A DNA stretch of 64,000 nucleotides, taken from contig OX597838.1 of assembly GCA_951406725.2 (NCBI GenBank), positions 30,566,001-30,630,000 of the forward strand, in the 5' to 3' direction. Positions 38,943-61,699 of this stretch are shown here, one piece after another. A model generated the notes under the pieces. It was not told where the DNA came from, did no database searches, and worked only from the letters and a program-made list of their open reading frames with translations. Position 1 is the first letter of the stretch. Every line of letters begins with the position of its first letter. Both the position numbers and the translations under genes were made by a program. Source of the DNA: Octopus vulgaris (lineage: Eukaryota).

Positions 38943-39015
38943 AGGTTCCAGCGAGTTTCGAACTCACCACCTTCTGCGTGTTAAGCAGATGTGATAACCA
39001 CTACACCATGGAACC
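38943..39015 (-). tRNA. tRNA-Val(AAC), G48 variant
   Basis: Full length; variant shared with the 52306 copy. Confidence 0.85.
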
Positions 39016-39533
39016 AGATGCTTCGATATTCTCTAATATTATTTTATCATAGATTAGTTGTAACTTGCGCAGAGTTTACTGTTGAGGTAGCTTTCAAAAC
39101 ACTGCGGAGAATCAGGAACGGTGAATTAACAAAAAGTATTTAGGTTTTCGAATCCTGCTCAAGTTCACTTTCCATTTTATGTATTTAGGGGTTTATAAGG
39201 ACCAGTTCTATTCGCAATTTTTGGTCTTTGCAATAGATATTTGGTCTTCTCTCACTCTTTATCTCTAACTTTGACTCACAGACAGATATTTTTAAAGAGC
39301 GTTCAGTGGATAAACTCTAGTCACAGATAATTACTGGTATATATTTTAACATCACTGGAAGCAGAAAAGCAAGCTCTATAGTTGCTCATGATGTTGTAGT
39401 CAACGGTGGTTTTGTTCCATGAGCTTCCCATCCCTAATTCTATAATAGAACAGTCCATTGTTGTATAGTTAGTTCTCCGGATCGATTTCACTTATATATG
39501 ATAAGAAACATTTTTGCGCATCGAGCAGCAGGT

Positions 39534-39606
39534 GGTTCCATGGTGTAGTGGTTATCACATCTGCTTTACACGCAGAAGGTCGTGAGTTCGAAACTCGCTG
39601 GAACCT
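39534..39606 (+). tRNA. tRNA-Val(TAC)
   Basis: Consensus body. Confidence 0.92.
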
Positions 39607-39702
39607 AGGCTATTTTTTTCATCTCCTGAGGTTAATGATTTTATTGGGTTAGGCATTGATGTCATTAGTTTATTGCATTTATTGTATTTACGCAAAACAG
39701 GT

Positions 39703-39775
39703 GGTCCCATGGTGTAGTGGTTATCACATCTGCTTTACACGCAGAAGGTCGTGAGTTCGAAACTCGCTGGAACCT
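39703..39775 (+). tRNA. tRNA-Val(TAC), C4:A69 mismatch
   Basis: Full length. Confidence 0.82.
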
Positions 39776-40540
39776 AGCTTCTTTCTTTCATCTCCTGAGG
39801 TTAATGATTTTATTGGGTTTAGGCATTGATGTCATTAGTTTATTGTATTTACACAAAACAACAGAAACAGCAGCAGCAGCATCTACACAAGCAGCAGATT
39901 AAACTGAAAAGCGCGCCAGGCAAAATGCTTTGCGGAATTTCGTCCGTCTTTACGTTCAGAGTTTTAATCCCACTGAGGATGACTTTGCCTTTCATCTTTT
40001 CGGGGTCGATAAAATAAGTACCCTTTGAGCAGTGGGGTCGGTGTAATCGACTTGCTGTCCTCTCTGAAATTTATGGCTTTTCTCTGCCAATAAATTTTAA
40101 TGTGACAGACTAAATACCTGCCTGTGTTTAATTATGCCCATTGGCTGAGATTGTTGGCAATCCAGACACGACCTACCTCAGAAAAAACAACGGCAATAAA
40201 ACGTTCTGAAAACAACAACAATAGCAATAGAAACAATTATGCTGGTGGTGCTAATAACTCCAAGGAAAATTTTTTTAGTGAAAGGATTAGTAGCAGCCGC
40301 AGCAGCAGTAACAACAACAACAACAACATCAGCAGCAGCAACAACAACAGCAGCATCAGCAACAACAACGGTAAAGATAAATACTGAGAAAAGATCAATA
40401 TTTATTGAGATGGTCAATAATTATGAAGAGAACTTGGCGTTATTTTTATATTCCTGAACACATGAACGGTGAAGTGAACTCCTGCAAGATTCGAAATTAA
40501 ATGATGTCGTTGGCGGGGGAAAAAAAATCAACACATGTAC

Positions 40541-40613
40541 AGGTTCCAGCGAGTTTCGAACTCGTGACCTTCTGCGTGTGAAGCAGACGTGATAACCTCT
40601 ACACCATGGAACT
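40541..40613 (-). tRNA. tRNA-Val(CAC) variant
   Basis: Full length; A1:C72 and A49:C65 mismatches. Confidence 0.7.
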
Positions 40614-41045
40614 AACTGCCATTAACTGGTTTATTTTGCTTATCATATATGGGCTGTATGTGAAATACAGAACATCGTTGATCTGTCTTTGAAGATACGG
40701 TAATGTAATCGGAAATTGTAGATTAACAAGAAGTATTTAGTTATATTTATTTATAATCGGGGTTTCATTAAAGTATGTCAGCCATGACCATCTCATCTTA
40801 TCAAACAATCCATCCAAGACTTCAGAATCCAGTGGCCTCCCCTCTTATTTCTCTTCCAATTCATATTTAGTGAGTCTTAAAGTGTTTGAACCTATGATTT
40901 ACGAACTGGTCACTGATATGTGACAACACGTGATAAGGCGGCATCTTTGATCAAAAATGTAGGGCGCGCTGCTGTCGTTTTTGAAGTTGATGCAAATATA
41001 TCAACACCTTTTTCCTATAAAAGTATAACACAAGAAGTAATTCTT

Positions 41046-41118
41046 AGGTTCCAGCGAGTTTCGAACTCACGACCTTCAGCGTGTTAAGCAGATGTGATAA
41101 CCACTACACCATGGAACC
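41046..41118 (-). tRNA. tRNA-Val(AAC), U29:U41 mismatch
   Basis: Full length. Confidence 0.82.
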
Positions 41119-41658
41119 AGCTGATAGTATGCTATCAAATATTGCTTTATATGAAAAAGTTGTGGGTTGTACAGAGTTTAATGGTTATTTATTTCTAGAA
41201 AAGTCAATGGAATCTCAGAAATGGTAAATTAACAACAAAAAATTATTTATATTTATTTTCAATTCAGGTTTCGAAACCTGCTGGAGTTGACTTTAACCTC
41301 TACATACTCAGGGTATCATAAAATATTGGTAAAATATTGGTTCTTTTGGTCAAATGTACATCGAGTTTATTACCTGGGCTCTTTTTAGAAATATCTGTCT
41401 GTGTGTCAATATGAGAGATGAAAATTAAAAGACAGTTCAATATTTATTAAGATCAATAATTGCCAGTAGAACAGGTCATTATTGTACTGACCCCTGAGGA
41501 TATAGAATGGAAAGTGAACTGCAGCAAGATTCGAAATGCTAATCTCTCCTTGTTAAGGTACTATTTTTGATACTCCACTGTGTTTTGAAAGCTAACATTA
41601 AACTCTGCACAAAATACTTGTGTATGACAAAACAATATCTAATAAGGCGACAGCATCT

Positions 41659-41731
41659 GGTTCCATGGTGTAGTGGTTATCACATCTGCTTAACACGCAG
41701 AAGGTCGTGAGTTCGAAACTCGCTGGAACCT
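41659..41731 (+). tRNA. tRNA-Val(AAC)
   Basis: Consensus body. Confidence 0.92.
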
Positions 41732-41799
41732 AATTGTTTTATATTTTATTTGTATTTAGTGCCACCACCCTCATTACTGTTGGTGAGGCAAGGGTTGCT

Positions 41800-42118
41800 T
41801 TTTCTCACCGACTTGAACTTGGCATACCAATCACAAGCGGTTCTTTCAGCTATGGCACCCTCTCCGTACACAGCACAAATGTCGCGAGCAGCTTTTGCGG
41901 CCTTAGTACCTTGACTAAAAGCAAAAAGGAGGTGTCGAAAATCCTCGTTTTTCTCAATTTGACATTCCATTTTAATGATCTGGAAATAAACAAAAATTAA
42001 CTAAAATTAACTAGAAATAAAAAAAAAGATTCCAAAATGATTCAAAAATAGAATTCTTGAAAAAATTAAATTCCAAGGTTTAAAAAAACTCGTTGGAAAT
42101 TAGTTGCCAACCCAATAT
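41800..42118 (-). mobile_element. Mariner 5' fragment carried in the duplicated block (also ~54470-54690, 56900-57216, 62390-62695)
   Basis: TIR GTTGCCAACCCAATA; MECQIEKNEDFRHLL...; same family as 25338. Confidence 0.85.
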
Positions 42119-42505
42119 ATGACTTATTTGAAATATGGGGCGAAATATCAGTAACTTATTCATGTATATCACTAGACCCTAACACTTTTAAAGTCATAAA
42201 TTGCAATAGTAAAGCTGGACATATGTCAAATAGAAATTAGAGGGAAATATTCAAATGGCGTGAGATAAATGATTTTCCAAAGATGACATTTAGTGAAGTC
42301 GAAAATGGGATCTCATGATTGCGAAGCCAACGATATAACTTATAGACTAGCTGAGCGTACGACAAGAGGTGTAAAGATCTAGACTCATCACAGCAATAAT
42401 TGAGACAAAAGGTCGTGTACTACAAGAACAACATCAGAATTTCCAGTATCATGGGGTTGAATGCGGTAGAACCTTGTACAAGCAAAGGAAAAAAAAAGTA
42501 GATTT

Positions 42506-42578
42506 AGGTTCCAGTGAGTTTCGAACTCACGACCTTCTGCGTGTGAAGCAGATGTGATAACCACTACACCATGGAACC
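42506..42578 (-). tRNA. tRNA-Val(CAC)
   Basis: Full length, U50:A64. Confidence 0.92.
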
Positions 42579-43105
42579 AGTCGGTAACAAACACCAAATG
42601 TTGCTTTAACAAATACTAATGGTATCTTACGCACAGTTTACAGTTGATTTACTTATAAAAAGACAGTGGAATATAAGATGATAATTTAAGAAGTATTTAG
42701 TTATATTTATTTATAGTGAGGGTTTCGAATCCTGTTGGCGTTCACTGCACCTTCCATGTATTCAGGAGATTATAAAATATTGGTCACTTCTTTTGGTCAA
42801 ATGTACATAGAGTACATCCACTGGGCTCTCTTTAGAAATATCTGTCTGTGCGTCAATGCTAGAGAGAAGATATTGAGAGAAGATCAATATTCATTTCATC
42901 AATATTTATTGCAAAGATCAATAATTATCAATAGATCAGGTCATTATTGTATAAACCCTCAATGCATAAAATGGAAAGTGAACACAACTAGGATTCGAAA
43001 CCCTATACAATTTTTGTTAATTCACCGTTGCTGCTCCAACATTAAATTGTGTATAAGATACATCTTGTGTATGATAAAGCAATATTTGAGAGCACTCAAG
43101 CATCC

Positions 43106-43178
43106 GGTTCCATGGTGTTGTGGTTATCACATCTGCTTAACACGCAGAAGGTCGTGAGTTCGAAACTCACTGGAACCT
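43106..43178 (+). tRNA. tRNA-Val(AAC), A14U
   Basis: Full length; invariant A14 mutated. Confidence 0.75.
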
Positions 43179-43752
43179 GACTTTGCTTTATATATTTTGC
43201 TCGTACATTAACTCACCGTTCGCATTACTGTTGGTACTGCAAGGTGCAGCTGTTTTGTTCCAGTTGTTGTGCCGCTCCACCACCCGGCCGCCACCAATTA
43301 ATATAAAATTAAACGCAGCCATGAATTAAAGTTTTCCACTTTGAAATTTCTCGTTCGAGACACTCAACATTAATTTCACATTATTGCACAAATTCAGCAA
43401 TTTCGACGAGGCGATAAATCGATGACATCGATCCCAGTGATTTGCAGGTGATTATTTTATCGACGCCGAAAGGATAAACGGTAAAGATGCACTTACAGAT
43501 CAATTACATCAACACCCGGCTTCCACCCACCGTATAAATTTCATCAACCCCCAAGGGATGCATGGCAAAATTGACGTCTTTGAAATTTGATCTCAGAAAG
43601 CAAAGCGCCAAGATTAACGCCACATAGGAATTTCTTCGACTCAATAACAATTCGCTTTCCAGTCCTATGTAATAAAACTAACAACAACAAGAACAAGAAG
43701 AAAGAGAGGATGGTTGCGTCCAAAACAAGTAAGAAAAGTAAAAAATAGACTT

Positions 43753-43825
43753 AGGTTCCAGCGAGTTTCGAACTCACGACCTTCTGCGTGTTAAGCAGAT
43801 GTGATAACCACTACACCATGGAACC
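43753..43825 (-). tRNA. tRNA-Val(AAC)
   Basis: Consensus body. Confidence 0.92.
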
Positions 43826-44237
43826 AGACAACTGAGCGCTCAAAAATATTGCTTTATCATACAGAAGTTGTTTCTAATACAGAGTTTAATGTCGTGTTTT
43901 TTTTCAAACTACAGCGGAGTATCAGAATCGATACGTTAACAAGAAGTGTTTCTTTCTTGCCAGGGTTTCGAATCCTACTAGATTCCCTCAAACGTCTATT
44001 GTTTCAGAGGTTCATAAAATAATGACTAGTTCTATTGGTAATTATTAGTCTTCTCAATAGATATCGATCTGATCTCAGTATCTATCTTTAACATTGACAC
44101 AGACAGTAGTGTTCAATGGATAAACTGAAGCCACCGTATATTACTGGTATATATTTTAACGTCACTAGATCATGAAAACTCCAGACCGATTTCACTTACG
44201 TATGACCAGAAAAATATTGAGTGTTGAAGCAGCGAAT

Positions 44238-44310
44238 GGTTCCATGGTGTAGTGGCTATCACGTCTGCTTCACACGCAGAAGATCGCGAGTTCGAAACTC
44301 GCTGGAACCT
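44238..44310 (+). tRNA. tRNA-Val(CAC)
   Basis: Full length, stems intact. Confidence 0.88.
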
Positions 44311-45090
44311 GCACATGTGCTGATTTTTTAAAATTTCTTTCTCCCCGCCAACGATATCATATAATTTCGAATTTTGCAGGAGTTCACTTCACCGTTCATG
44401 CGTTCAGGAATATAAAAGTAACGCCAAGTTCTATTCATAATTATTGACCATCTCAATAAATATTGATCTTTTCTCAGTATCTATCTTTACCGTTGTTGCT
44501 GTTGCTGCTGCTGCTGTTGCTGTTGTTGTTGTTGTTACTGCTGCTGCTGTTGTTGTTGTTGTTGCTGCGTCTGCTGCTGTTGTTGTTGTTGCTGCTGCTG
44601 CTGCAGCTGCTGTTGTTGTTGCTGCTGCTGCTAATCCTTTCATTAAAAAAAATTTCCTTGTAGATATTACCCCCACCAGCATAATCTTTCTTTTGCAATT
44701 GTTGTTGTTTTCAGAACGTTTCATTGTCGTTGTTTTTACTGAGGTAGGGCGTGTCTGGATTGGCAACAATCTCAGCCAATGGACATAATTAAACACAAGC
44801 AGGTATTTAGTCTGTCACATTAAAATTTCTTGGCAGAGAAAGGCCATGAATTTCAGAGAGGACGGCCAGTCGATCACACCGACCTTACTGCTCAAAGGGT
44901 ATTTATTTTATCGACCCCGAAAAAATGAAAGGCAAAGTCATCCTCGGCGGGATTTGAACTCTGAACGTAAAGACGGACGAAATTCCGCAAAGCATTTTGC
45001 CTGGCGCGCTTCTCAGTTTGATCTGTTGCTTGTGTAGATGCTGCTGCTGCTGTTTCTGTTGTTTTGTATAAATACAAAAAAAAAAAGGCT

Positions 45091-45163
45091 AGGTTCCAGC
45101 GAGTTTCGAACTCACGACCTTCTGCGTGTAAAGCAGATGTGATAACCACTACACCATGGAACG
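45091..45163 (-). tRNA. tRNA-Val(TAC), C1:C72 mismatch
   Basis: Full length. Confidence 0.8.
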
Positions 45164-45260
45164 ACCTGCTTTGTGTAAATACAATAAATACAATAAACTA
45201 ATGGCATCAATGCCACACCCAATAAAATCATTAATCTCAGGAGATGAATAAAAAACAGCT

Positions 45261-45333
45261 AGGTTCCAGCGAGTTTCGAACTCACGACCTTCTGCGTGTA
45301 AAGCAGATGTGATAACCACTACACCATGGAACC
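45261..45333 (-). tRNA. tRNA-Val(TAC)
   Basis: Consensus body. Confidence 0.92.
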
Positions 45334-45821
45334 ACCTGCTGCATCTAGCGCAAAATTTTTTCTTATCATATATAAGTGAAATCAATCCGGAGAACTAACT
45401 ATACAACAATGGAGTGTTCTATTATAGAATGAGGGGTGGAAAGCCCATGGAAAAAAAACTGCCGTTGACTACATCATGAGCAACTATAGTTCTTGTTTTC
45501 CTGCTTCCAGTGATGTTAAAATATATACCAGTAATTATCGGTGACTAGAGTTTATCCACTGAACGCTATTTAGAAATATCTGTCTGTGAGTCAAAGTTAG
45601 AGATATAGAGTGAGAGAAGACCAAATATCTATTGCAAAGACCAAAAATTGCGAATGGAACTGGTCCTTATAAACCCCTAAATACATAAAATGGAAAGTGA
45701 ACTCGAGCAGGATTCGAAAACCTAAATACTTTCAGTGTTTTGAAAGATACCTCAACTGTAAACTCTGCGCAAGTTACAACTAATCTACGATAAAATAATA
45801 TTTGATAATACCCAAGCATCT

Positions 45822-45894
45822 GGTTCCATGGTGTAGTGGTTATCACATCTACTTAACACGCAGAAGGTCGTGAGTTCGAAACTCGCTGGAACCT
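45822..45894 (+). tRNA. tRNA-Val(AAC), A30:C40 mismatch
   Basis: Full length. Confidence 0.8.
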
Positions 45895-46751
45895 AATTGC
45901 TTTATATTTTGCTAGTATATAATCATTTCTATTCTAAGCACAAGGCCCAAAATTTTGGGGGTAGGGGCAAGTCAATTAGATGGACTCCAGTATGCAACTG
46001 GTACTTAATTTATCGACCCCGGAAGGATGACAGGCAAAGTCGACCTCGGCGGAATTTGAACTCAGAACGTAAAGACAGACAAAATATCTATTTCTTTACT
46101 ACCCACAAGGGGCTAAACACAGAGAGGACAAACAAGGACAGACAAACGGGTTAAGTCGATTATATTGACCCCAGTGCGTAACTGGTACTTATTTAATCGA
46201 CCCCGAAAGAATGAAAGGCAAAGTCGACCTCGGCGGAATTTGAACTCGGAACGTAAAGACATACGAAATACCACGAAGCATTTCGCTCGGCGTGCTAACG
46301 TTTCTGCCAGCTCGCCGCCATATTTTGCTAGTACATAATGCCACCACCCACATTACTGTTGGTATTGCAAATGCTGTTGTTGACGACGTTTGGTTCCAGT
46401 TGTTGTTGTTGTTGTTACTATTGTGTTGTAGGGTGGGCCCTTTCTGCCGTCACCACAGATGTGGACGGACGGACTCAGCGATATATTAAAATTTGAAAAT
46501 TTGTCAGTAGAGACAATTGGTTTCAAATTTGCGTACAAGGCCAGCAATTTCAGTGGGAGGAGATAAGTCGCTTACATCAACCACAATGCTCAACTGGTAT
46601 GTATTTTATCGACCCCGGCGGTATTTGAACCCAGAACGTAAAGACGGACGAAATGCCGTGAAGCTTTTTACCCAGGGTGCTAACGAATCTGCGAAACTAT
46701 CGCCGTACGTCTTCTATATAATAAAGCAATAATTAAGTGCCGGTCGTGTCT

Positions 46752-46824
46752 GGTTCCATGGTGTAGTGGTAATCACATCTGCTTCACACGCAGAAGGTCG
46801 TGAGTTCGAAACTCACTGGAACCT
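46752..46824 (+). tRNA. tRNA-Val(CAC)
   Basis: Full length, stems intact. Confidence 0.9.
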
Positions 46825-46848
46825 GTCATTTGTTTTCTGTTTTGTTTT

Positions 46849-46900
46849 GACCCTGGGGTTTCTAAGACCCTGGGGTTTCTAAGACCCTGGGGTTTCTAAA
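46849..46900. repeat. 17-bp tandem triplication
   Basis: GACCCTGGGGTTTCTAA x3; single copy at paralog ~52880. Confidence 0.85.
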
Positions 46901-47716
46901 ACAATGGGAATGGAGACCGATATATTTAGTTTCTTGTATTTGCTATAGTTATTGGTGCTAATACCCCCCCCCCCCCGCATTTGTCTTCATCGTCATCGCT
47001 TTTCTCTTAAGACTTAAATAGTAATATCGACCTCGGCCAGATTTTTAAAATAAGAAAGATCTTACTCAAAACAACACTCAGTGAGGGCGAACAGAGGACT
47101 TCATGATTGTGGAGCTAATTACGTAACTATGAACAGCTCTAATACATAATGAGTGGTGTAAAGATCCAGACCGCTGTATAACGGTTTCAATACTCTATTG
47201 AATATTCTTTTCCCTTCATCGTGATATGAATATTTTTGAGAGATTGAAAAACTTAACAATCTCTGGTTTCTATTTCTCTCTCTTTTAAAACTCAGAGAGA
47301 AACCTTTCTGTGAAATGACGACGAAACCTAAAGAAGTGAAGAGAGAGGGAAACTGTAGTGTTCCGGATTAAAGGTTCTCTAGTATTTACATTCCGTTAGC
47401 TTCTTAGTTGTTGTTTCTGATCAAATAGACATGGCTGACATTAAAGTATCACAGCCATGACCATCTCATCTTATCAAACAATCCATCCAAGACTTCAGTA
47501 TCCAGTGGCCTCCCCTCTTATTTCTCTTCTAATTCGTATTTAGTGAGTCTCAAAGTGTTTGATCCTAGATTTACGACCTGGTCACTGATATGTGACAACA
47601 CGTGATAAGGCGGCATCTTCGATCAAAAATGTAGGGCGCGCTGTTGGTCTTTTTGAAGTTGATGCAAATATATCAACGCCTATTCCTATAAAAGTATAAC
47701 TCAAAATGTAAATCTC

Positions 47717-47789
47717 AGGTTCCAGCGAGTTTCGAACTCACGACCTTCTGCGTGTAAAGCAGATGTGATAACCACTACACCATGGAACC
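47717..47789 (-). tRNA. tRNA-Val(TAC)
   Basis: Consensus; part of a 3-copy mini-array. Confidence 0.92.
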
Positions 47790-47886
47790 ACCTGTGTTGT
47801 GTAAATACAATAAATACAATAAACTAATGACATCAATGCCTAACCCAATAAAATCATTAACGTCAGGAGAAGAAAAAAAAGAAGCT

Positions 47887-47959
47887 AGGTTCCAGCGAGT
47901 TTCGAACTCACGACCTTCTGCGTGTAAAGCAGATGTGATAACCACTACAACATGGAACC
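47887..47959 (-). tRNA. tRNA-Val(TAC), G10U
   Basis: Full length; D-stem mismatch. Confidence 0.78.
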
Positions 47960-48047
47960 ACCTGTTTTGTGTAAATACAATAAACTAATGACATCAATGC
48001 CTAATCCAATAAAATCATTAACCCCAGGAGATGAAAAAAATGAAGCT

Positions 48048-48120
48048 AGGTTCCAGCGAGTTTCGAACTCACGACCTTCTGCGTGTAAAGCAGATGTGAT
48101 AACCACTACACCATGGAACC
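48048..48120 (-). tRNA. tRNA-Val(TAC)
   Basis: Consensus body. Confidence 0.92.
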
Positions 48121-49026
48121 ACCTGTGTTGTGTAAATACAATAAATACAATAAACTAATGACATCAATGCCTAACCCAATAAAATCATTAACGTCAGGAG
48201 ATGAAAAAAAAAAGCTATGTTCCAGTATGGAATGGAGACAGATATATTTAGTTTCTTGTATTTGCTATAGTTATTGGTGCTAATAACCCACCCGCATTTG
48301 TCTTCATCGTCAACGCTTTTCTCTTAAGACATAAATAGTAATATCGACCTCGGCCAGATTTTTAAAATAAGAAAGATCTTACTCAAAACAACACTCAGTG
48401 AGGGCGAAGAGAGGACTTCATGATTGTGGAGCTAATTACGTAACTATGAACAGCTCTAATACATAATGAGTGGTGTAAAGATCCAGACCGCTGTATAACG
48501 GTTTCAATACTCTATTGAATATTCTTTTCCCTTCATTGTGATATGAATATTCTTGAGAGATTGAAAAACTTAGAAATCTCTGGATTCTATTTCTGTCTCT
48601 TTTAAAACTCAGAAAGAAACCTTTGTATAAAATGATGACGAAACCAAAAGAAGTGAAGAGAGAGAAACTGTAGTGTTCCGGATTAAAGGTTCTCTAGTAT
48701 TTACATTCCGTTAGATTCTTAGTTGTTGTTTCTGATCAAACAGACATATAATTAAAGTATGTCAGCCATGACCATCTCATCTTATCAAACAATCTATCCA
48801 AGACCTCGGGATCCAGTGGCCTCCCCTCTTATTTCTCTTCCAATTCGTATTTAGTGAGTCTTAAAGTGTTTGATCTTAGATTTACGACCTGGTCACTGAT
48901 ATATGACAACATGTGATAGGCGGCATCTTGGATCAAAAATGTAGGGCGCACTGCTGTCGTTTTTGAAGTTGATGCAAATATATCAACGTCTATTCCTATA
49001 AAAGTTTAACTCAAAAAGAAAATCTT

Positions 49027-49099
49027 AGGTTCCAGCGAGTTCCGAACTCACGACTTTCTGCGTGTAAAGCAGATGTGATAACCACTACACCAAGAAACC
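49027..49099 (-). tRNA. tRNA-Val(TAC) array variant, A58G
   Basis: 5' GGTTTCT; T loop mutated. Confidence 0.65.
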
Positions 49100-49197
49100 A
49101 CATGTTTTCTGTAGATACAATAAATACAATAAACTAATGACATCAATGCCTAATCCAATAAAATCATTAACCTCAGGAGATGAAAAAAAAAAAAGCT

Positions 49198-49270
49198 AGG
49201 TTCCAGTGAGTTTCGAACTCACGACCTTCTGCGTGTAAAGCAGATGTGATAACCACTACACCAAGAAACC
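49198..49270 (-). tRNA. tRNA-Val(TAC) array variant, U73
   Basis: 5' GGTTTCT (U5:G68, U7:U66). Confidence 0.78.
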
Positions 49271-49367
49271 ACATGTTTTCTGTAGATACAATAAATACAA
49301 TAAACTAATGACATCAATGCCTAATCCAATAAAATCATTAACCTCAGGAGATGAAAAAAAAAAAGTT

Positions 49368-49440
49368 TGGTTCCAGTGAGTTTCGAACTCACGACCTTCT
49401 GCGTGTAAAGCAGATGTGATAACCACTACACCAAGAAACC
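49368..49440 (-). tRNA. tRNA-Val(TAC) array variant, A73
   Basis: Array unit. Confidence 0.78.
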
Positions 49441-49531
49441 ACATGTTTTCTGTAGATACAATAAATACAATAAACTAATGACATCAATGCCTAATCCAAT
49501 AAAATCATTAACCTCAGGAGATGAAAAAGTT

Positions 49532-49604
49532 TGGTTCCAGTGAGTTTCGAACTCACGACCTTCTGCGTGTAAAGCAGATGTGATAACCACTACACCAAGA
49601 AACC
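49532..49604 (-). tRNA. tRNA-Val(TAC) array variant, A73
   Basis: Array unit. Confidence 0.78.
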
Positions 49605-49700
49605 ACATGTTTTCTGTAGATACAATAAATACAATAAACTAATGACATCAATGCCTAATCCAATAAAATCATTAACCTCAGGAGATGAAAAAAAAAAGTT

Positions 49701-49773
49701 TGGTTCCAGTGAGTTTCGAACTCACGACCTTCTGCGTGTAAAGCAGATGTGATAACCACTACACCAAGAAACC
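49701..49773 (-). tRNA. tRNA-Val(TAC) array variant, A73
   Basis: Array unit. Confidence 0.78.
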
Positions 49774-49865
49774 ACATGTTTTCTGTAGATACAATAAATA
49801 CAATAAACTAATGACATCAATGCCTAATCCAATAAAATCATTAACCTCAGGAGAAAAAAAAAGTT

Positions 49866-49938
49866 TGGTTCCAGTGAGTTTCGAACTCACGACCTTCTGC
49901 GTGTAAAGCAGATATGATAACCACTACACCAAGAAACC
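49866..49938 (-). tRNA. tRNA-Val(TAC) array variant, A73, C25U
   Basis: Array unit. Confidence 0.75.
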
Positions 49939-50033
49939 ACATGTTTTCTGTAGATACAATAAATACAATAAACTAATGACATCAATGCCTAATCCAATAA
50001 AATCATTAACCTCAGGAGATGAAAAAAAAAGTT

Positions 50034-50106
50034 AGGTTCCAGTGAGTTTCGAACTCACGACCTTCTGCGTGTAAAGCAGATGTGATAACCACTACACCAA
50101 GAAACC
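50034..50106 (-). tRNA. tRNA-Val(TAC) array variant, U73
   Basis: Array unit. Confidence 0.78.
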
Positions 50107-50201
50107 ACATGTTTTCTGTAGATACAATAAATACAATAAACTAATGACATCAATGCCTAATCCAATAAAATCATTAACCTCAGGAGATGAAAAAAAAAGT
50201 T

Positions 50202-50274
50202 TGGTTCCAGTGAGTTTCGAACTCACGACCTTCTGCGTGTAAAGCAGATGTGATAACCACTACACCAAGAAACC
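50202..50274 (-). tRNA. tRNA-Val(TAC) array variant, A73
   Basis: Array unit. Confidence 0.78.
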
Positions 50275-50370
50275 ACATGTTTTCTGTAGATACAATAAAT
50301 ACAATAAACTAATGACATCAATGCCTAATCCAATAAAATCATTAACCTCAGGAGATGAAAAAAAAAAGTT

Positions 50371-50443
50371 TGGTTCCAGTGAGTTTCGAACTCACGACCT
50401 TCTGCGTGTAAAGCAGATGTGATAACCACTACACCAAGAAACC
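50371..50443 (-). tRNA. tRNA-Val(TAC) array variant, A73
   Basis: Array unit. Confidence 0.78.
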
Positions 50444-50539
50444 ACATGTTTTCTGTAGATACAATAAATACAATAAACTAATGACATCAATGCCTAATCC
50501 AATAAAATCATTAACCTCAGGAGATGAAAAAAAAACGTT

Positions 50540-50612
50540 AGGTTCCAGTGAGTTTCGAACTCACGACCTTCTGCGTGTAAAGCAGATGTGATAACCACTA
50601 CACCAAGAAACC
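50540..50612 (-). tRNA. tRNA-Val(TAC) array variant, U73
   Basis: Array unit. Confidence 0.78.
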
Positions 50613-50705
50613 ACATGTTTTCTGTAGATACAATAAATACAATAAACTAATGACATCAATGCCTAATCCAATAAAATCATTAACCTCAGGAGATGAAAAA
50701 AAGTT

Positions 50706-50778
50706 TGGTTCCAGTGAGTTTCGAACTCACGACCTTCTGCGTGTAAAGCAGATGTGATAACCACTACACCAAGAAACC
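50706..50778 (-). tRNA. tRNA-Val(TAC) array variant, A73
   Basis: Array unit. Confidence 0.78.
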
Positions 50779-50872
50779 ACATGTTTTCTGTAGATACAAT
50801 AAATACAATAAACTAATGACATCAATGCCTAATCCAATAAAATCATTAACCTCAGGAGATGAAAAAAACGTT

Positions 50873-50945
50873 AGGTTCCAGTGAGTTTCGAACTCACGAC
50901 CTTCTGCGTGTAAAGCAGATGTGATAACCACTACACCAAGAAACC
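50873..50945 (-). tRNA. tRNA-Val(TAC) array variant, U73
   Basis: Array unit. Confidence 0.78.
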
Positions 50946-51040
50946 ACATGTTTTCTGTAGATACAATAAATACAATAAACTAATGACATCAATGCCTAAT
51001 CCAATAAAATCATTAACCTCAAGAGATGAAAAAAAAAGTT

Positions 51041-51113
51041 AGGTTCCAGTGAGTTTCGAACTCACGACCTTCTGCGTGTAAAGCAGATGTGATAACCACT
51101 ACACCAAGAAACC
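51041..51113 (-). tRNA. tRNA-Val(TAC) array variant, U73
   Basis: Array unit. Confidence 0.78.
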
Positions 51114-51208
51114 ACATGTTTTCTGTAGATACAATAAATACAATAAACTAATGACATCAATGCCTAATCCAATAAAATCATTAACCTCAGGAGATGAAAA
51201 AAAAAGTT

Positions 51209-51281
51209 AGGTTCCAGTGAGTTTCGAACTCACGACCTTCTGCGTGTAAAGCAGATGTGATAACCACTACACCAAGAAACC
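51209..51281 (-). tRNA. tRNA-Val(TAC) array variant, U73
   Basis: Array unit. Confidence 0.78.
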
Positions 51282-51377
51282 ACATGTTTTCTGTAGATAC
51301 AATAAATACAATAAACTAATGACATCAATGCCTAATCCAATAAAATCATTAACCTCAGGAGATGAAAAAAAAAAGTT

Positions 51378-51450
51378 AGGTTCCAGTGAGTTTCGAACTC
51401 ACGACCTTCTGCGTGTAAAGCAGATGTGATAACCACTACACCAAGAAACC
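51378..51450 (-). tRNA. tRNA-Val(TAC) array variant, U73
   Basis: Array unit. Confidence 0.78.
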
Positions 51451-51545
51451 ACATGTTTTCTGTAGATACAATAAATACAATAAACTAATGACATCAATGC
51501 CTAATCCAATAAAATCATTAACCTCAGGAGATGAAAAAAAAAGTT

Positions 51546-51618
51546 TGGTTCCAGTGAGTTTCGAACTCACGACCTTCTGCGTGTAAAGCAGATGTGATAA
51601 CCACTACACCAAGAAACC
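51546..51618 (-). tRNA. tRNA-Val(TAC) array variant, A73
   Basis: Array unit. Confidence 0.78.
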
Positions 51619-51712
51619 ACATGTTTTCTGTAGATACAATAAATACAATAAACTAATGACATCAATGCCTAATCCAATAAAATCATTAACCTCAGGAGAT
51701 GAAAAAAAAGTT

Positions 51713-51785
51713 AGGTTCCAGTGAGTTTCGAACTCACGACCTTCTGCGTGTAAAGCAGATGTGATAACCACTACACCATGGAACC
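51713..51785 (-). tRNA. tRNA-Val(TAC), lead copy of the array with intact acceptor stem
   Basis: 5' GGTTCCA; normal upstream flank. Confidence 0.92.
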
Positions 51786-52305
51786 ACCTGCTGCTTGTAG
51801 CGCAAAATGTTTTCTTATCATATATAGGTGAAATCGATCCGGAGAACTAACTATACAACACAATGGACTGTTCTATTATAGAATGAGGGGTGGAAAGCCC
51901 ATAGAACAAAACCGTCGTTGGCTCCAACATCATGAGCAACTATAGAGCTTGCTTTCCTGCTTCCAGTGATGTTAAAATATATACCAGTAATTATCTGTTA
52001 CTAGAGTTTATCCACTGAACGCTTTTTAGAAATATCTGTCTGTGAGTCAAAGTTAGAGATAAAGAGTGAGAGAAGACCAAATATCTATTGCAAAGACCAA
52101 AAAGTGCGAATGGAACTGGTCCTTATAAACCCCTAAATGCATAAAATAGAAAGTGAACTCGAGCAGGATTCGAAAACCTAAATACTTTTTGTTAATTCAC
52201 CGTTCCTGATTCCCCGCAGTGTTTTGAAAGCTACCTCGACATTACACTCTGCGCAAGTTACAACTAATCTATGATAAAACAATATTTGAAAATAACCAAA
52301 CATCC

Positions 52306-52378
52306 GGTTCCATGGTGTAGTGGTTATCACATCTGCTTAACACGCAGAAGGTGGTGAGTTCGAAACTCGCTGGAACCT
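52306..52378 (+). tRNA. tRNA-Val(AAC), G48 variant
   Basis: Full length. Confidence 0.85.
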
Positions 52379-52782
52379 AATTGCTTTACATTTTGCTCGT
52401 ATATAATCATTTCTATTCTATGCACACGGCCCGAAATTATGGTGGAAGGGGCAAGTAGATTAGATCGACGCCAGTATGCAACTGGTACTAAATTTATCGA
52501 GGTCGATAAATTAAGTACCAGTTTCGCACTGGTGTCGATGTAATCGACTTAATACCTATGTCTGCCCTTGTTTAGCCCCTTGTAGTTAATAAAGAAATAG
52601 GTACTTAATTTATCGACCCCGAAAGGATGAAAGGCAAAGTCGACCACGGCAGAATTTGAACTCAGAACGTAAAGACGGACGAAATGCCGTGAAGCTTTTT
52701 ACCCAGGGTGCTAAAGAATCTGCGAAACTGTCGCCTTACATCTTCTATATAATAAAACAATAATTAAGTGCACGTCGTGTCT

Positions 52783-52855
52783 GGTTCCATGGTGTAGTGT
52801 TTATCACATCTGCTTCACACGCTGAAGGTCGTGAGTTCGAAACTCGCTGGAACCT
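52783..52855 (+). tRNA. tRNA-Val(CAC), probably defective
   Basis: D-loop GG changed to GT; U29:U41 mismatch. Confidence 0.65.
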
Positions 52856-53704
52856 ACCATTTGTTTCCTATTTTGTTTTGACCCTAGGGTTTCTAATACA
52901 ATGGGAGTGGAGACAGATATATTTAGTTTCTTGTATTTGCTATAGTTATTGTTGCTAATAACCCACCCGTATTTGTCTTCATTGTCAACGCTTTTCTCTT
53001 AAGACATAAATAGTAATATCGACCTCGGCCAGATTTTTAAAATAAGAAAGATCTTACTCAAAACAACACTCAGTGAGGGCGAAGAGAGGACTTCATGATT
53101 GTGGAGCTAATTAGGTAACTATGAACAGCTCTAATACATAATGAGTGGTGTAAAGATCCAGACCGTTGTATAACGGTTTCAATACTCTATTGAATATTCT
53201 TTTCCCTTCATTGTGATATGAATATTCTTGAGAGATTGAAAAACTTAACAATGTCTGGTTTCTATTTCTCTCTCTTTTAAAACTCAGAGAGAAACCTTTG
53301 TATAAAATGATGACGAAACCAAAAGAAGTGAAGAGAGAGAGAAACTGTAGTGTTCCGGATTAAAGGTTATATAGTATTTACATTCCGTTAGCTTCTTAGT
53401 TGTTGTTTCTGATCAAACAGACATATAATTAAAGTATGTCAGCCATGACTCTCTCATCTTATCAAACAATCCATCTAAGTCTTCAGTGTCCAGTGGCCTC
53501 CCCTCTTATTTCTCTTCCAATTCATATTTAGTGAGTCTTAAAGTGTTTGATCCTAGATTTACGAACTGGTCACTGATATATGACAACACGTGATAAGGCG
53601 GCATCTTTGATAAAAAATGTAGGGCGCGCTGTTGGTCTTTTTGAAGTTGATGCAAATATATCAACGTCTATTCCTATAAAAGTATAAGTCAAAAAGTAAG
53701 CCCA

Positions 53705-53777
53705 AGGTTCCAGCGAGTTTCGAACTCACGACCTTCTGCGTGTTAAGCAGATGTGATAACCACTACACCATGGAACT
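53705..53777 (-). tRNA. tRNA-Val(AAC), A1:C72 mismatch
   Basis: Full length. Confidence 0.8.
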
Positions 53778-54327
53778 AGTTGATAGTCTGTTATCAAATA
53801 TTGCTTTATATAAAAAAAGTTGTGGGTTGTACAGAGTTTAATGGTTATTTACTTTAAGAAAAGACAGTGGAATCTTAGAAATGGTAAATTAACAAGAAAA
53901 AATTAGTTATATTTATTTCAATTCAGGTTTCGAACCCTGGTGGAGTTGACTTTAACCCTGGTGGAGTTGACTCAGGGTATCATAAAATATTGGTAAAATA
54001 TTAGTTCTTTTGGTCAAATGTACATCGAGTTTATCACCTGGGCTCTTTTTAGAAATGTCTGTCTGTGTGTCAATGTGAGAGATGAAAATTAAAAGACAGT
54101 TCAATATTTATTACGATCAATAATTACCAATAGAACAGGTCATTATCGTATTGACCCCTGAGGATACAGAATAGAAAGTGGACTGCAGCAGGATTCGAAA
54201 TGCTAAGCTCTCCTTCTTAAGGTACTATTTTTGATACTCCAGTGTGTTTTGAAAGCTAACTCTACGTTAAAATCTGCACAAAATACCTGTGTATGACAAA
54301 ACAATATCTGATAGAACGGAAGCATCT

Positions 54328-54400
54328 GGTTCCATGGTGTAGTGGTTATCACATCTGCTTAACACGCAGAAGGTCGTGAGTTCGAAACTCGCTGGAACCT
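54328..54400 (+). tRNA. tRNA-Val(AAC)
   Basis: Consensus body. Confidence 0.92.
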
Positions 54401-55132
54401 AATTGTTTTATATATTATTTGCATTTAGTGCCACCACCCTCATTACTGTTGGTGAGGCAAGGGTTGCTTTTTCTCACCGACTTGAACTTGGCATACCAAT
54501 CATGAGTGGTTCTTTCAGCTATGGAACCCTCTCCGTACACAACACAAATGTCGCGAGCAGCGTTTGCGGCATTAGAACCTTGACTAAAAGCAAAAAGAAG
54601 GAGGTCGAAAATGCTCGTTTTTCTTAACTTGGCATTTCATTTTAATGATCTGGAAATAAACAATAATTAACTAAAATTAATTAGAAAAAAAAAAAAAGTA
54701 TTTAGTTATATTTATTTATAGTGAGGGTTTCGAATCCTGTTAGAGCTCACTGTACCTTCCATGTATTCAGGAGATTATAAAATATTGGTCACTTCTTTTG
54801 GTCAATTGTACATAGAGTACATCCACTGGGCTCTCTTTAGAAATATCTGTCTGTGTGTCAATGCTAGAGAGAAGATATTGAGAGATCAATATTTATTTTA
54901 TCAATATTTATTGCAAAGATCAATAATTATCAATAGATCAGGTCATTATTGTATAAACCCTCAATGCATAAAATGGAAAGTGAACACAACTAGGATTCGA
55001 AACCCTATACAATTTTTGTTAATTCACCGTTTCTGATACACCAATGCGCATTGAAAGCTGCTCCAACATTAACTTGTGTATAAGATACAACTTGTGTATG
55101 ATAAAACAATATTTGAGAACGCTCAATCATCT

Positions 55133-55176
55133 GGTTCCATGGTGTAGTGGTTATCACATCTGCTTAACACGCAGAA
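55133..55176 (+). pseudogene. tRNA-Val(AAC) 5'-half fragment
   Basis: Perfect through the anticodon arm, then unrelated sequence. Confidence 0.8.
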
Positions 55177-55312
55177 CCCACCTGATAATCCTTGCTGTCT
55201 CTAAGTGACAAAGTTTCTTTGAGAACTCCACAGCGCATTCTATTCCAGTCTCCTTCATCCATTTGTCTATATTTTTGCTTACTGTTCTCAACGCACCGAT
55301 TATTATTATTAT

Positions 55313-55385
55313 TATTCCATGGTGTAGTGGTTATCACATCTTCTTCACAAGCAGAAGTTCGTGAGTTCGAAACTCGCTGGAATCT
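55313..55385 (+). pseudogene. tRNA-Val(CAC) probable pseudogene
   Basis: G1G2 lost to (TTA)n; G30U and C38A. Confidence 0.7.
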
Positions 55386-56136
55386 CAAGATGTTTTTTAT
55401 TTTATTAACATTGGGGGCTTCTAATTTTACGAGAGTGGGGATTGATATATAATTAATTTGTTGTATTTCCTACAGTTATTAGTGCCAATACCCGTCCCGT
55501 ATTTGTCTTCATCGTAGGCTATGAAGCTGGTGTTACTTATGGTGTTGTAACTGTTACCATTTCTGTGATCTCTTCTGTTGTATGGTGGTAGAGAAAACGG
55601 ATCTTTTCTGTTGCCGTAACAGTTTTTTGAAATGTAAAATTGAGAGAAAATATCCAGATTTGGTCCATTGATGTCATTTTTCACATTGAACCTGATGTTG
55701 TTATTCACTTATTCCAGAAAAATTTTAGAAAAATATTACATTTATAGGATGTTGCCAATATTTTTGTTGTCGACGAAATTTTGCAATGTCTCACTGAATG
55801 GATAAAAGGTGTTTAGTTATGTCCCTTTGTGTCGTCCGTTGTTGTTTTTGGCGGTGGTGGCGGTGGTGGTGGGGCGGCAGATCAATTACATCAACACTCG
55901 GTTTCCACCCACAGTACATATTTCATCAACACCCAAGGGATGCATGGCAAAATTCACGTCTTTGAAATTTGATCTCAGAACCCAAAGCGCCAAGATTAAC
56001 GCCAATTTAGCAGTTTCTTCGACACAGTAACAATTCGCTTTACTGTCCTATGTAATAAAGCTAACAACAACAAGAACAAGAAGATAGAGCGGATGGTTGC
56101 GTCCAAAACAAGTAAACAAAGCCAAAAAGAAATCTT

Positions 56137-56209
56137 AGGTTCCAGCGAGTTTCGAACTCACGACCTTCTGCGTGTTAAGCAGATGTGATAACCACTACAC
56201 CATGGAACC
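56137..56209 (-). tRNA. tRNA-Val(AAC)
   Basis: Consensus body; chimeric flanks. Confidence 0.92.
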
Positions 56210-56758
56210 AGTTGACAGCATTTTATCAGATCTTGTTTTATATAAAGAAGTTGTGGGTTGTAGTACAGCGTTTAATGGTGATTTACTTTAAGAAAAGACA
56301 ATGAAATCTCAGAAATGGTAAATTAACAAGAAAAAATTAGTTATATTTATTTTCAATTCAGGGTTCGAATCCTTCTGGAGTTGACTTTCACCTCCACGTA
56401 CTCAGGGTATCATAAAATATTGGTAAAATATTGGTTGTTTTGGTCAAATGTACATCGAGTTTATCAACTGGGCTCTTTTTAGAAATATCTGTCTGTGTGT
56501 CAATGTGAGAGATGAAAATTAAAAGACAGTTCAATATTTATTAAGATCAATAATTACCAATAGAACAGGTCATTATTGTATTGACCCCAGAGGACACAGA
56601 ATAGAAAGCGAACTGCAGCAGGATTCGAAATGCTAAGCTCTTCTTGTTAATGTAACCATTTTTGATACTCCACTGTGTTTTGAAAGCTAACTCTACATTA
56701 AACTCTGCACAAAATACTTGCGTATGACAAAACAATATCTGATAGAGCGACAGCATCT

Positions 56759-56831
56759 GGTTCCATGGTGTAGTGGTTATCACATCTGCTTAACACGCAG
56801 AAGGTCGTGAGTTCGAAACTCGCTGGAACCT
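56759..56831 (+). tRNA. tRNA-Val(AAC)
   Basis: Consensus body. Confidence 0.92.
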
Positions 56832-57604
56832 GACTGTTTTATATTTTATTTGTATTTAGTGCCACCACCCTCATTACTGTTGGTGAGGCAAGGGTTGCTT
56901 TTTCTCACCGACTTGAACTTGGCATACCAATCACGAGCGGTTCTTTCAGCCATGGCACCATCTCCGTACACAGCACAAATGTCGCGAGCAGCCTTTGCGG
57001 CCTTAGAACCTTGACTAAAAGCAAAAAGAGAGGTGTCGAAAATGCTCGTTTTTCTTAACTTGGCATTCCATTTTAATGATCTGGAAATAAATAAAAATTA
57101 ACTAAAATTAACTAGAAAAAAAAAAAGATTCCAAAATGATTCAAAAATAGAACTCTTGATAAAATTAAATTCCAAAATTAAAAAAAAACGGTGGGAAATT
57201 AGTTGCCAACACAATATATGACTCATTTGAAATATGGGGCGAAATATCAGTAACTTATTCGTGTATAACACTGGAACCTAACACTTTTAAAGTCATAAAT
57301 TGCAATAGTAAAGCTGGACATATGTCAAATAAGAAATTAGAGAGAAGTATTCAAATGGCGTGAGATAAATGATTTTCCCAAGATGACATTCAGTGAAGTC
57401 AAAAATGGGATCTCATGATTGCGAAGCCAACGATATAACTTATAGACTGGCTGAGCGTACAACAAGGGGTGTAAAGATCTAGATCCATCACAGCAATAAC
57501 TGAGACAAAAGGCCGTGTACTACAAGAACAACATCAGAATTGCCAGTATCATGGGGTTGAATGCGGTAGAACCTTGTACAAGCAAAGGAAAAAAAAGTAT
57601 AATT

Positions 57605-57677
57605 AGGTTCCAGTGAGTTTCGAACTCACGACCTTCTGCGTGTTAAGCAGATGTGATATCCACTACACCCTGGAACC
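57605..57677 (-). tRNA. tRNA-Val(AAC), U8G, at a locus that is CAC in its paralogs
   Basis: Full length; invariant U8 mutated. Confidence 0.72.
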
Positions 57678-58280
57678 AGTCGGCAGCATGCCCAAATGTT
57701 GCTTTAACATATTCAAATGGTATCTTATTCACGTTTAAAGTTGATTTACCTTTAAAAATTCAGTGGAATATCCAAAATGGTGGTGGTGGTGGTTTTATTA
57801 CATTGAATTGCACAGCGGTGTTTGCGGGTAGAATTGTTAGTGTGTCGAAGAAAACGCTAAATGGCGTTGCTTCTGGCGCTTTGTGTTCTGAGTTCAAATT
57901 TCGCGGACGTCAACAATGCCATGCATCCTTTCGGGGTCGACAAAGTAAATACAGTGGGTAGAAACCTGGTATGGAAGTAATTGCACTGCCACCACCACCA
58001 CCACCACTACCATCCTGCGATCATTAATGCAACACACTGACCACCAAGCCAAGCGATTCCATGACGTTAAAATACGTACCCGTAATATACTGTGGTCAGT
58101 GTTTATCTATTGTATTCTCTTTAGAAATATCTGTCCGTGTCAATGTTAGAGACAGATATTAAAGATCAATAATTACCGATTGAACAGGCCATTATTTTTT
58201 ATATCCCGGAAGGTATAAAACGCAAAGTGAACATCAACAGGATTTGAATAGACATAATATAATATATATGATAAATATAA

Positions 58281-58672
58281 TCTCTCTATATATAAAGCTG
58301 AAGTTGTCTGTGTATGGCAGGTTTGGTAGCCTTCGACTAACACTATCTCCTCCGAGACCCTGCGGCGCAAGTTGACCGAAATTGAGAGTATGATAGAAGA
58401 AGGCTTGCTCTTCATTCCGTAGAAGATAAAATTCAAATCGGACCATGTTAACACCAAAAATTATTTACATCAAAAAGGTGCTTTTTTTCTATGAAAATCC
58501 CTATTTTTTACGATTTTTTGACTGCTGTGTCGCCATTTTTCGGTGTATTTCAACCAGGAAAATGTTCACTTAAAGAGAATAACAAGCTACATAATGCAAA
58601 ACTTTTACTTTTCAAAAATTCCAATTCTAAAGGGTCGAAACAAACCCGAGCAACGCCGGGCGATACAGCTAG
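58281..58672 (+). mobile_element. Non-autonomous Helitron
   Basis: A|TCTCTCTATATATAAAG...CCCGAGCAACGCCGGG hairpin...CTAG|T. Confidence 0.75.
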
Positions 58673-58832
58673 TAGATATATAAGGTAGAAGCAGATAGAA
58701 ATGGATAGAAATAGATATAACCAAATACTTTTTCTTAATCTACCGTTTCTGATCCTTTTAAAGACAAATCAACAATGAACTGTGTTTTACATCTCATATA
58801 AGATAAGCAAAATAATCAAGTTGCTGACAGGT

Positions 58833-58905
58833 GGTCCCATGGTGTAGAGGTTATCACGTCTGCTTCACACGCAGAAGGTCGCGAGTTCGAAACTCGCTGG
58901 AATCT
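58833..58905 (+). tRNA. tRNA-Val(CAC) variant
   Basis: Full length; C4:A69, G2:U71. Confidence 0.72.
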
Positions 58906-59492
58906 GTAATCCGTTGATTTTTTAAAAAATTTCTTTTTCCCCGCCAAAGATATCATTTAATTTCGAATCTTGCAGGAGTTCACTTCACCGTTCATGCGTT
59001 CAGGAATATAAAAATAACGCCGAGTTCTATTCATAATTATTGACCATCTCAATAAATATTGATTTTTCTCAGTATTTATCTTTACCGTTGTTGATGTTGC
59101 TGCTGCTGCTGTTGTTGTTGTTGCTGCTGCTGCTGCTGCTGTTGTTGTTGTTGTTGTTGCTGCTGCTTCTGCTGCTTCTGCGGCTGCCGCCGCTGCTAAT
59201 TATTTCTTTAAAATTATTTACTTGTAGATATTAGCACCACCACCATAATAGTTTCTATTGCAATTGCTGTTGTTTGCAGAACGTTTTATTGTCGTTGTTT
59301 TTACTGAGGTAGGGCGTGTTTGGATTGGCAACGATCTCAGCTAATGGACATAATTTAACACAAGCAGGTATTTAGTCTGTCACATTAAAATTTATTGGCA
59401 GAGAAAGGCCATGAATTTCAGCGAGGACGGCCAGTCGATTACACCGACCCCACTGCTCGACCCCGAAAAGATGAAAGGCAAAGTCATCCTCG

Positions 59493-59530
59493 GTGTAAAG
59501 CAGATGTAATAACCACTACACAATGGAACC
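59493..59530 (-). pseudogene. tRNA-Val(TAC) 5'-half at a deletion junction
   Basis: SINE sequence fused directly to GTGTAAAGCAG; compare intact 44940-45163. Confidence 0.75.
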
Positions 59531-59617
59531 ACCTGTTTTCTGTAAATACAATAAACTAATGACATCAATGCCTAACCCAATAAAATCATTAACCTCAGGA
59601 GATGAAAAAGAAAAGCT

Positions 59618-59690
59618 AGGTTCCAGCGAGTTTCAAACTCACGACCTTCTACGTGTAAAGCAGATGTGATAACCACTACACCATGGAACC
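59618..59690 (-). tRNA. tRNA-Val(TAC), C56U, probably defective B box
   Basis: T loop TTTGA. Confidence 0.65.
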
Positions 59691-60204
59691 AACTGCTGCT
59701 TCTAGCGCAAAAAGTTTTCTTATCATATATAAGTGAAATCGATCCGGAGAACTAGCTATACAACAATGGAGTGTTCTATTATAGAATGAGGGGTGGAAAG
59801 CCCATGGAACGAAACCGTCGTTGGTACATCATGAGCAACTATAAAGCTTGCTTTCCTGCTTTCAGTGATGTTAAAATATATACCAGTAATTATCTGTGAC
59901 TAGAGTTTATCCACTGAACTCTCTTTAGAAATATCTGTCTGTGAGTCAAAGTTAGAGATGAAGAGTGAGAGAAGACCAAATATCTATTGCAAAGACCAAC
60001 AATTGCGAATGGAACTGGTCCTTATAAACCCCTAAATACATAAAATGGAAAGAGAACTCGAGCAGGATTCGAAAACCTAAATACTTTTTGTTAATTCACC
60101 GTTCCTGATTCCCCGCAGTGTTTTGAAAGCTACCTCGACATTAAACTCTGCGCAAGTTACAACTAATCTATGATAAAACAATATTTGAAGATATCCAAGC
60201 ATCT

Positions 60205-60277
60205 GGTTCCATGGTGTAGTGGTTATCACATCTGCTTAACACGCAGAAAGTTGTGAGTTCGAAACTCGCTGGAACCT
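60205..60277 (+). tRNA. tRNA-Val(AAC), variable-loop variant
   Basis: Full length, stems intact. Confidence 0.83.
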
Positions 60278-61626: not shown

Positions 61627-61699
61627 AGGTTCCAGCGAGTTTCGAACTCACGACCTTCTGCGTGTTAAGCAGATGTGATAACCACTACACCATGGAACC
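61627..61699 (-). tRNA. tRNA-Val(AAC)
   Basis: Consensus body. Confidence 0.92.

Follow-up and report, generated by a model that had tools for sequence, protein, structure and literature searches.

A tandem array of tRNA-Val(TAC) gene copies with an altered acceptor stem inside a Val-only, U73-bearing tRNA gene cluster of Octopus vulgaris

Results

The array and its genes

We analysed a 64-kb stretch of Octopus vulgaris DNA, which we call the window. Between positions 49027 and 51785, on the minus strand, 17 tRNA-Val(TAC) genes lie head to tail according to both ARAGORN and Rfam RF00005. The array consists of the following parts:

49027..51785, minus strand: array of ~168-bp units, each made of a 73-nt gene, a short trailer, a T-run and a ~83-bp spacer core
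49027..49099, minus strand: terminal hybrid gene with the variant 5' half, G64, A58G and G45A, followed by an AAC-slot downstream flank (family of 41046, 53705 and 61627)
49198..51618, minus strand: 15 internal variant genes with C5U, A7U and G64A; A73 in 8 and U73 in 7
51713..51785, minus strand: lead gene with an intact 7-bp acceptor stem, A64 and U73
51814..51826, minus strand: candidate AT-rich, TATA-like element at -41 to -29 of the lead gene, with a putative function

An earlier note on this DNA had claimed a 17-copy tandem array of ~168-bp units, and this holds. TRF reports a period of 168 with 16.5 copies and 98% matches (score 5249, far beyond chance), and the units, each with its tRNA gene in head-to-tail orientation, are 164–171 bp long. 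The spacer core is 100% identical in 15 of the 16 array spacers (in one of the 15 over 81 of 83 nt).

As the note had also read, sixteen of the 17 genes carry C5U and A7U, which produce a U5:G68 wobble and a U7:U66 mismatch, and the lead gene 51713 alone is intact. None of the 16 variants thus retains the seven paired acceptor positions of a functional cytosolic tRNA-Val (U7:U66). The other features of a functional tRNA-Val (A35, C36, A and B boxes and terminator) are intact in 15 of the 16 variant genes. The exception is 49027, where A58G is the sole B-box lesion, so that the A and B boxes are indeed spared in all but one unit. A run of 4–12 T within 4 nt of base 73 closes each of the 17 genes, again in line with the first description, and gene 49866 carries C25U. 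Of the window's 59 tRNA genes, the lead gene scores highest with Rfam (67.7 bits); the 16 variants score between 50.5 and 60.8, and variant genes at 58–61 bits are on a level with other genes here that have a single lesion.

The lead gene was said to have a normal upstream flank, and it does: its native TAC-slot flank belongs to a family shared with 39534, 45261 and 59618. The AT-rich element near -35 is absent from the spacer that precedes the internal array copies. Stand-alone genes from 18 flank families have in common an AT-rich element at -30 to -19, plus C-5, A-4 and T-1. Together these may serve as an upstream promoter and start motif for Pol III. C-5, A-4 and T-1 are conserved in 16, 13 and 16 of the 18 upstream families, respectively, and are retained by spacer-preceded copies. 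The upstream-element score of spacer-preceded copies is 0.7–3.0 against a background 95th percentile of 4.1, a weak indication, with all 22 spacer-preceded genes forming one sequence family and paralogues of the training genes kept in. Scores above 4.1 occur in 26 of the 30 other genes to the right of 35.8 kb, and clearly in just one of the seven left-block genes.

We also considered a hairpin between leader and acceptor strand that would block folding. This idea was rejected, as the pairing probability is just 0.02–0.14; acceptor-stem probabilities with the leader included are noisy, even for the intact lead gene.

The surrounding Val-only cluster

14937..63787, strand not specified: Val-only cluster of 59 genes (30 TAC, 20 AAC and 9 CAC) and 9 remnants

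Every tRNA gene in the window is a Val gene, 59 by ARAGORN and 59 by Rfam RF00005. The AAC, CAC and TAC anticodons all sit on one tRNA body. These bodies differ by 3.6% on average and none of the 59 contains an indel (all are 73 nt by Rfam coordinates), whereas the older flank families align at just ~70–78%. U13:U22, which is normal for tRNA-Val (PMC9023262, in the passage cited), is present in 59 of 59 genes. Some paralogous slots carry different anticodons (CAC at 42506 and 63084 vs AAC at 57605; AAC at 20718 vs TAC at 24891), pointing to base-34 switches or to conversion within the cluster.

Nine truncated or degenerate Val remnants were missed by both ARAGORN and Rfam (13986, 15326, 16940, 29201, 29910, 31336, 37831, 55133 and 59493); the one at 16940 ends in A73. 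They bear witness to a continuing birth and death of Val genes. Between 35800 and 64000 the DNA is organised in cassettes of 1–2.7 kb with 85–94% identity, in direct and inverted orientation, often with tail-to-tail AAC pairs ~540 bp apart. Very long microsatellites occur at 466–13400 (e.g., TA x195, GAT x113, ACT x113 and CAC x182). ORF fragments at 1018–1437 (minus strand) and 23891–24388 (plus strand) resemble, by eye, remnants of LINE reverse transcriptases.

One could argue that these genes are the heads of a tRNA-Val-derived SINE. In the giant squid, Val far outnumbers every other isotype, with 3,203 loci that the authors read as likely SINEs (da Fonseca 2020, PMC6962438, Table S3, as far as the passages cited go), and the non-canonical U73 of our cluster would also fit a SINE. 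In the window, however, the loci are clustered genes, and the SINE reading is largely refuted there for the following reasons. First, the 18 downstream-flank families have no tRNA-unrelated body or tail in common: their median local score of 16 equals that of shuffled sequence, and just 7 of 153 pairs exceed 40. Second, a T4 run occurs within 23 nt in all 18 of these families. Third, copies have spread with both flanks through segmental duplication. We therefore regard SINE heads as next to impossible here. Separately, an interspersed SINE-like repeat is abundant in the window (52441–52740 and 38 more local matches, 39 in total), often as inverted pairs; presumably it is an octopus SINE family.

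Base 73

From left to right, base 73 of the array reads U,U,A,A,A,A,U,A,A,U,A,U,U,U,U,A,U (8 A and 9 U), identical to the order given in the earlier note. What did not survive is the framing of this mosaic as damage. U73 occurs in 50 of the 59 cluster genes, which as a set thereby lack the A73 discriminator of canonical eukaryotic tRNA-Val, and in 42 of the 43 genes that are not among the 16 variant units. All 18 downstream-flank families have U at base 73, while the adjoining base varies (A in 8, G in 6, C in 3 and T in 1). Hence, U73 acts like a conserved base of the gene itself. Outside the array, A73 is found in gene 20421 and, of four remnants inspected, in one. Since U73 is the cluster norm, A73 is, on this comparison, the derived state in the array and U73 the conserved state of the cluster.

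The two bases are not clustered along the array: there are 9 runs, as expected from shuffles (P=0.50, runs test). When we simulated block duplication and accepted outcomes with 6–9 A units (85,130 of 200,000 runs), 94% of the accepted simulations had at least eight base-73 runs. Under this model, the interleaved order is what block duplication yields, and selection on the order is unnecessary.

Relatives of the array unit

Parts of the unit recur at five other places in the window:

36722..36964, plus strand: dimer of CAC gene 36722, spacer and TAC gene 36892 (C5U)
39534..39775, plus strand: TAC-slot dimer whose second copy, 39703, keeps the original downstream flank leading into a CAG repeat
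45091..45333, minus strand: TAC-slot dimer of genes 45091 and 45261
47717..48226, minus strand: older run of the array unit, with three genes and a 10-nt remnant of a fourth (48217–48226)
59493..59690, minus strand: TAC-slot lead 59618, spacer and truncated second copy (broken copy at 59493–59530)

The same unit had been said to occur as dimers and a trimer. This is right for the spacer, which all have in common. The C5U+A7U variant, however, is absent from them, and their second copies have lesions of their own instead: C5U, G46U and C72U in 36892, U4C in 39703, G1C in 45091 and G10U in 47887. Four of the six non-array genes preceded by a spacer have such changes, and a seventh is truncated. 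In the trimer, two of the three genes match the consensus body exactly. The spacers of the dimers and the trimer are 5.7–11.8% diverged. The run at 47717–48226 records an older expansion of the unit to at least four copies; it carries neither C5U nor A7U, and its left end is a hybrid of the same kind as the array's.

The same spacer and a second copy stand behind all four genes with the TAC-slot flank (39534, 45261, 51713 and 59618, truncated at the last). A founder dimer must therefore be older than the cassette duplications. The spacer is a fusion: ~88 bases come from the original downstream flank, and the final few from the upstream side. Microhomology suggests itself, for the original downstream flank leads on to a CAG repeat and CAG units close the upstream flank. 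We propose that the founder dimer arose by a short duplication that fused the downstream flank to the last 5–7 upstream bases, possibly at CAG microhomology. Spacer-preceded copies are without the upstream AT-rich element and frequently bear lesions, which would be consistent with relaxed selection.

As the relative closest to the array unit, the unit tree weakly suggests the dimer 36722/36892: the tree has one starred branch only, and the link to 36892 has values of 81/87. Gene 36722 of this dimer reads CAC, and its upstream flank is foreign.

We also weighed a template switch as the origin of the clustered changes, for which the near-palindromic variant junction would speak. The changes occur singly elsewhere, however: C5U stands by itself in 36892, and just one of the flank changes is seen in the spacer behind 59618. 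Stepwise change therefore fits better, and the template switch was rejected.

Expansion of the array

Among the 15 full internal units, divergence is 0.58% per site, and 0.25% when base 73 is left out (T-runs collapsed). Young paralogous flanks differ by 5.1–9.7%, ten- to thirty-fold more. With internal units ~0.6% apart against 5–10% between paralogous flanks, the expansion must be young or freshly homogenised. Its apparent youth could thus reflect recent homogenisation instead, and the number of units is that given by the assembly.

The array's formation by unequal crossover, as proposed from the first look at the letters, agrees well with what we find. Its units are closer to each other than to outside paralogues, and the most divergent ones are the ends. 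At the left end, 49198 retains an older trailer, and 49027 joins the TAC variant 5' half to an AAC-slot flank, which argues for a crossover within the tRNA body; 48229–49098 aligns to 52904–53776 at 94.3%. This join would have formed between near-identical tRNA bodies. U73 and a G insertion are common to units 50873 and 50540, which lie two units from each other, a mark of multi-unit duplication, and the block-duplication model reproduces the base-73 order. At 47717, 49027, 56137, 36722, 36892 and 24891, the upstream flank belongs to one slot family and the downstream flank to another, so the cluster seems to be reshuffled by crossover within gene bodies. Copy-number variation at the array is plausible by analogy.

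It is unlikely that the array is an artefact of assembly or polishing, in which the true unit number, T-run lengths or A/U mosaic would differ, for example because two haplotypes were mixed. The nearly invariant spacer cores would fit such an error, as would variation that is mostly in T-run length (5–12) and at one two-state site in random order. Among the 24 public-run rows listed, 20 (10 studies, no RNA run among those listed) contain part of the words of 48230–52300, and the best has only 0.44 of the sampled words. From these shares the variant can be neither demonstrated nor excluded for other individuals, because many of the words recur in the window (0.42 of positions, 0.36 counted once; array-specific 0.29); rows with a share of 0.09 were set aside. 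Against an artefact, the array is short (2.8 kb), the 64-kb window contains no N and resolves long microsatellites, and all 59 gene bodies are free of indels. In addition, a linked variant repeats in two units, and related dimers and an older run are present.

Discussion

The most probable history of the array, in our judgement, is a recent neutral amplification by unequal crossover and drift, with 16 variant copies from which little or no working tRNA is predicted. A second copy would have been damaged, U73A would then have arisen in one unit, and block duplications would have multiplied and shuffled both forms. With dozens of intact U73 Val genes nearby, the array may have been invisible to selection. 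Apart from base 34, 14 of the 43 other genes match the consensus body exactly, five of them TAC. With so many perfect genes close by, the array is most likely neutral.

The predicted cloverleaf of the variant (-16.5 kcal/mol) is ~4.1 kcal/mol less stable than that of the lead gene (-20.6 kcal/mol). In the passages cited of a study on yeast SUP4oc, a loss of 2.65 kcal/mol predicted rapid decay and 8 of 140 non-canonical stem variants held GFP above 0.5 (PMC4117946), figures for another tRNA in another organism than the array genes. The 16 variant copies are likely non-functional. Transcription of the variants is possible all the same, as A and B boxes, the C-5/A-4/T-1 signature, terminators and Rfam scores are maintained, and the genes may well be transcribed. 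The array warns that dead copies with good scores can push tRNA gene counts too high (here 16 of 30 TAC genes).

Could the array have been selected as a source of RNA? Transcribed units might yield unstable tRNAs or fragments, or A73 might partly rescue the variants as a Val determinant and by extending the acceptor helix with U-1:A73. The promoter boxes and terminators are kept, A73 is listed as a eukaryotic Val determinant (PMC9976931, Table 1) and is reported in the passage cited to speed CCA addition (PMC4477674), and the -1:73 pair is predicted to contribute ~0.9 kcal/mol. However, A73 is present in just 8 of the 15 internal units, and nothing points to a sweep. Paralogous second copies have different lesions, which fits decay, and intact Val copies are plentiful. 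Nothing here supports the idea of a fragment source, and we give selection for RNA slightly less credence than an artefact.

The earlier note had further suggested a dense TFIIIC/Pol III platform or insulator, and this suggestion found no support. B boxes are intact in 16 of 17 genes at 168-bp spacing, and the human 1q23.3 tDNA VNTR has been implicated as a boundary (PMC4041453, in the passages cited). The human case, however, depends on a 7.3-kb unit whose CTCF site is conserved. In the octopus, 36 other tRNA genes lie within the same 28 kb, the internal units are without the upstream AT-rich element, and coding-like ORFs of at least 130 aa in the window are, by eye, solely repeats or retroelement-like fragments. 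Box conservation is moreover expected from youth alone (0.25–0.6% divergence). Selection for a platform or chromatin boundary is thus very improbable, and neutral amplification remains our preferred reading.

Tandem and homogeneous tDNA clusters are already known in eukaryotes (Bermudez-Santana 2010, PMC2888827, cited in part). The closest model for the octopus array is the Ser-Tyr-Tyr array on chromosome 1 of Arabidopsis, which the cited passages describe in terms of unequal crossover, pseudogenes sheltered by redundancy, divergent ends and neutral drift (Kane, Freeling and Lyons 2010, PMC2886086), and which is silenced in most tissues (PMC12308677, also cited in part). Both arrays expanded in tandem by unequal crossover, hold many dead copies and have their most divergent units at the ends. 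The octopus unit differs in being a single gene of 168 bp, its array is much smaller and more homogeneous, and it is nested in a larger cluster of inverted and direct cassettes of one isotype.

The human 1q23.3 VNTR is likewise a tandem tRNA-gene repeat and a model for variable copy number, comprising 9–43 units of a GC-rich, multi-gene 7.3-kb sequence that contains a conserved CTCF site (Darrow and Chadwick 2014, PMC4041453, as described in the passages cited), whereas the octopus unit is AT-rich and 168 bp long. Homogeneous clusters in animals (PMC2888827) and the tRNA arrays of Entamoeba (PMC2652664) also combine, in the parts cited, same-isotype genes with pseudogenes and fast turnover. 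The octopus cluster differs from both in holding one amino acid only, on one U73 body, and from the Entamoeba arrays in having no short tandem repeats between genes. The array is an unusually well-preserved, if ordinary, snapshot of tRNA gene birth and death, of a kind that is already known.

The U73 family is a better lead than the array. According to Giege and Eriani, the determinants of eukaryotic tRNA-Val are A73 and A35, and A73 is conserved in canonical tRNA-Val (PMC9976931, Table 1); the same review, in the passage cited, notes that A73 makes no difference to wheat germ ValRS acting on the tRNA-like structure of TYMV. Compared with canonical metazoan tRNA-Val as summarised in parts of two sources (PMC9976931; PMC9023262), the cluster shares A35, C36, U13:U22, the cloverleaf and the Pol III boxes, and differs by U73 and by having one body for three anticodons. 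Its acceptor strand also differs from the human and silkworm Val motif and fits the Gln motif tabulated there (PMC9976931; PMC9023262). At the level of titles, abstracts and passages in the openly licensed literature, we found no description of a U73 animal tRNA-Val or of the present cluster; the passages considered from PMC10954443, PMC9679248, PMC4999229, PMC2018626 and PMC13010820 contribute nothing to this question either. Two further points belong to this comparison. The Val genes of nematodes probably also end in U, and an acceptor strand of the cluster type is probably also the usual one for Val(TAC).

We tentatively raise the possibility, which we consider rather doubtful, that in this animal lineage the working cytosolic tRNA-Val set now rests on a single TAC-type U73 body for all three anticodons, that its ValRS no longer needs A73, and that self-shuffling clusters rather than SINEs explain the excess of Val tDNA in cephalopods. 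As A73 counts in reviews as a Val determinant that is conserved, the U73 family would matter more if it were the working Val set. The cluster also offers an explanation other than SINEs for the thousands of Val loci in the giant squid, and on the possibility raised here the array, with A73 and U73 copies side by side, would be a natural test of one base against the other.
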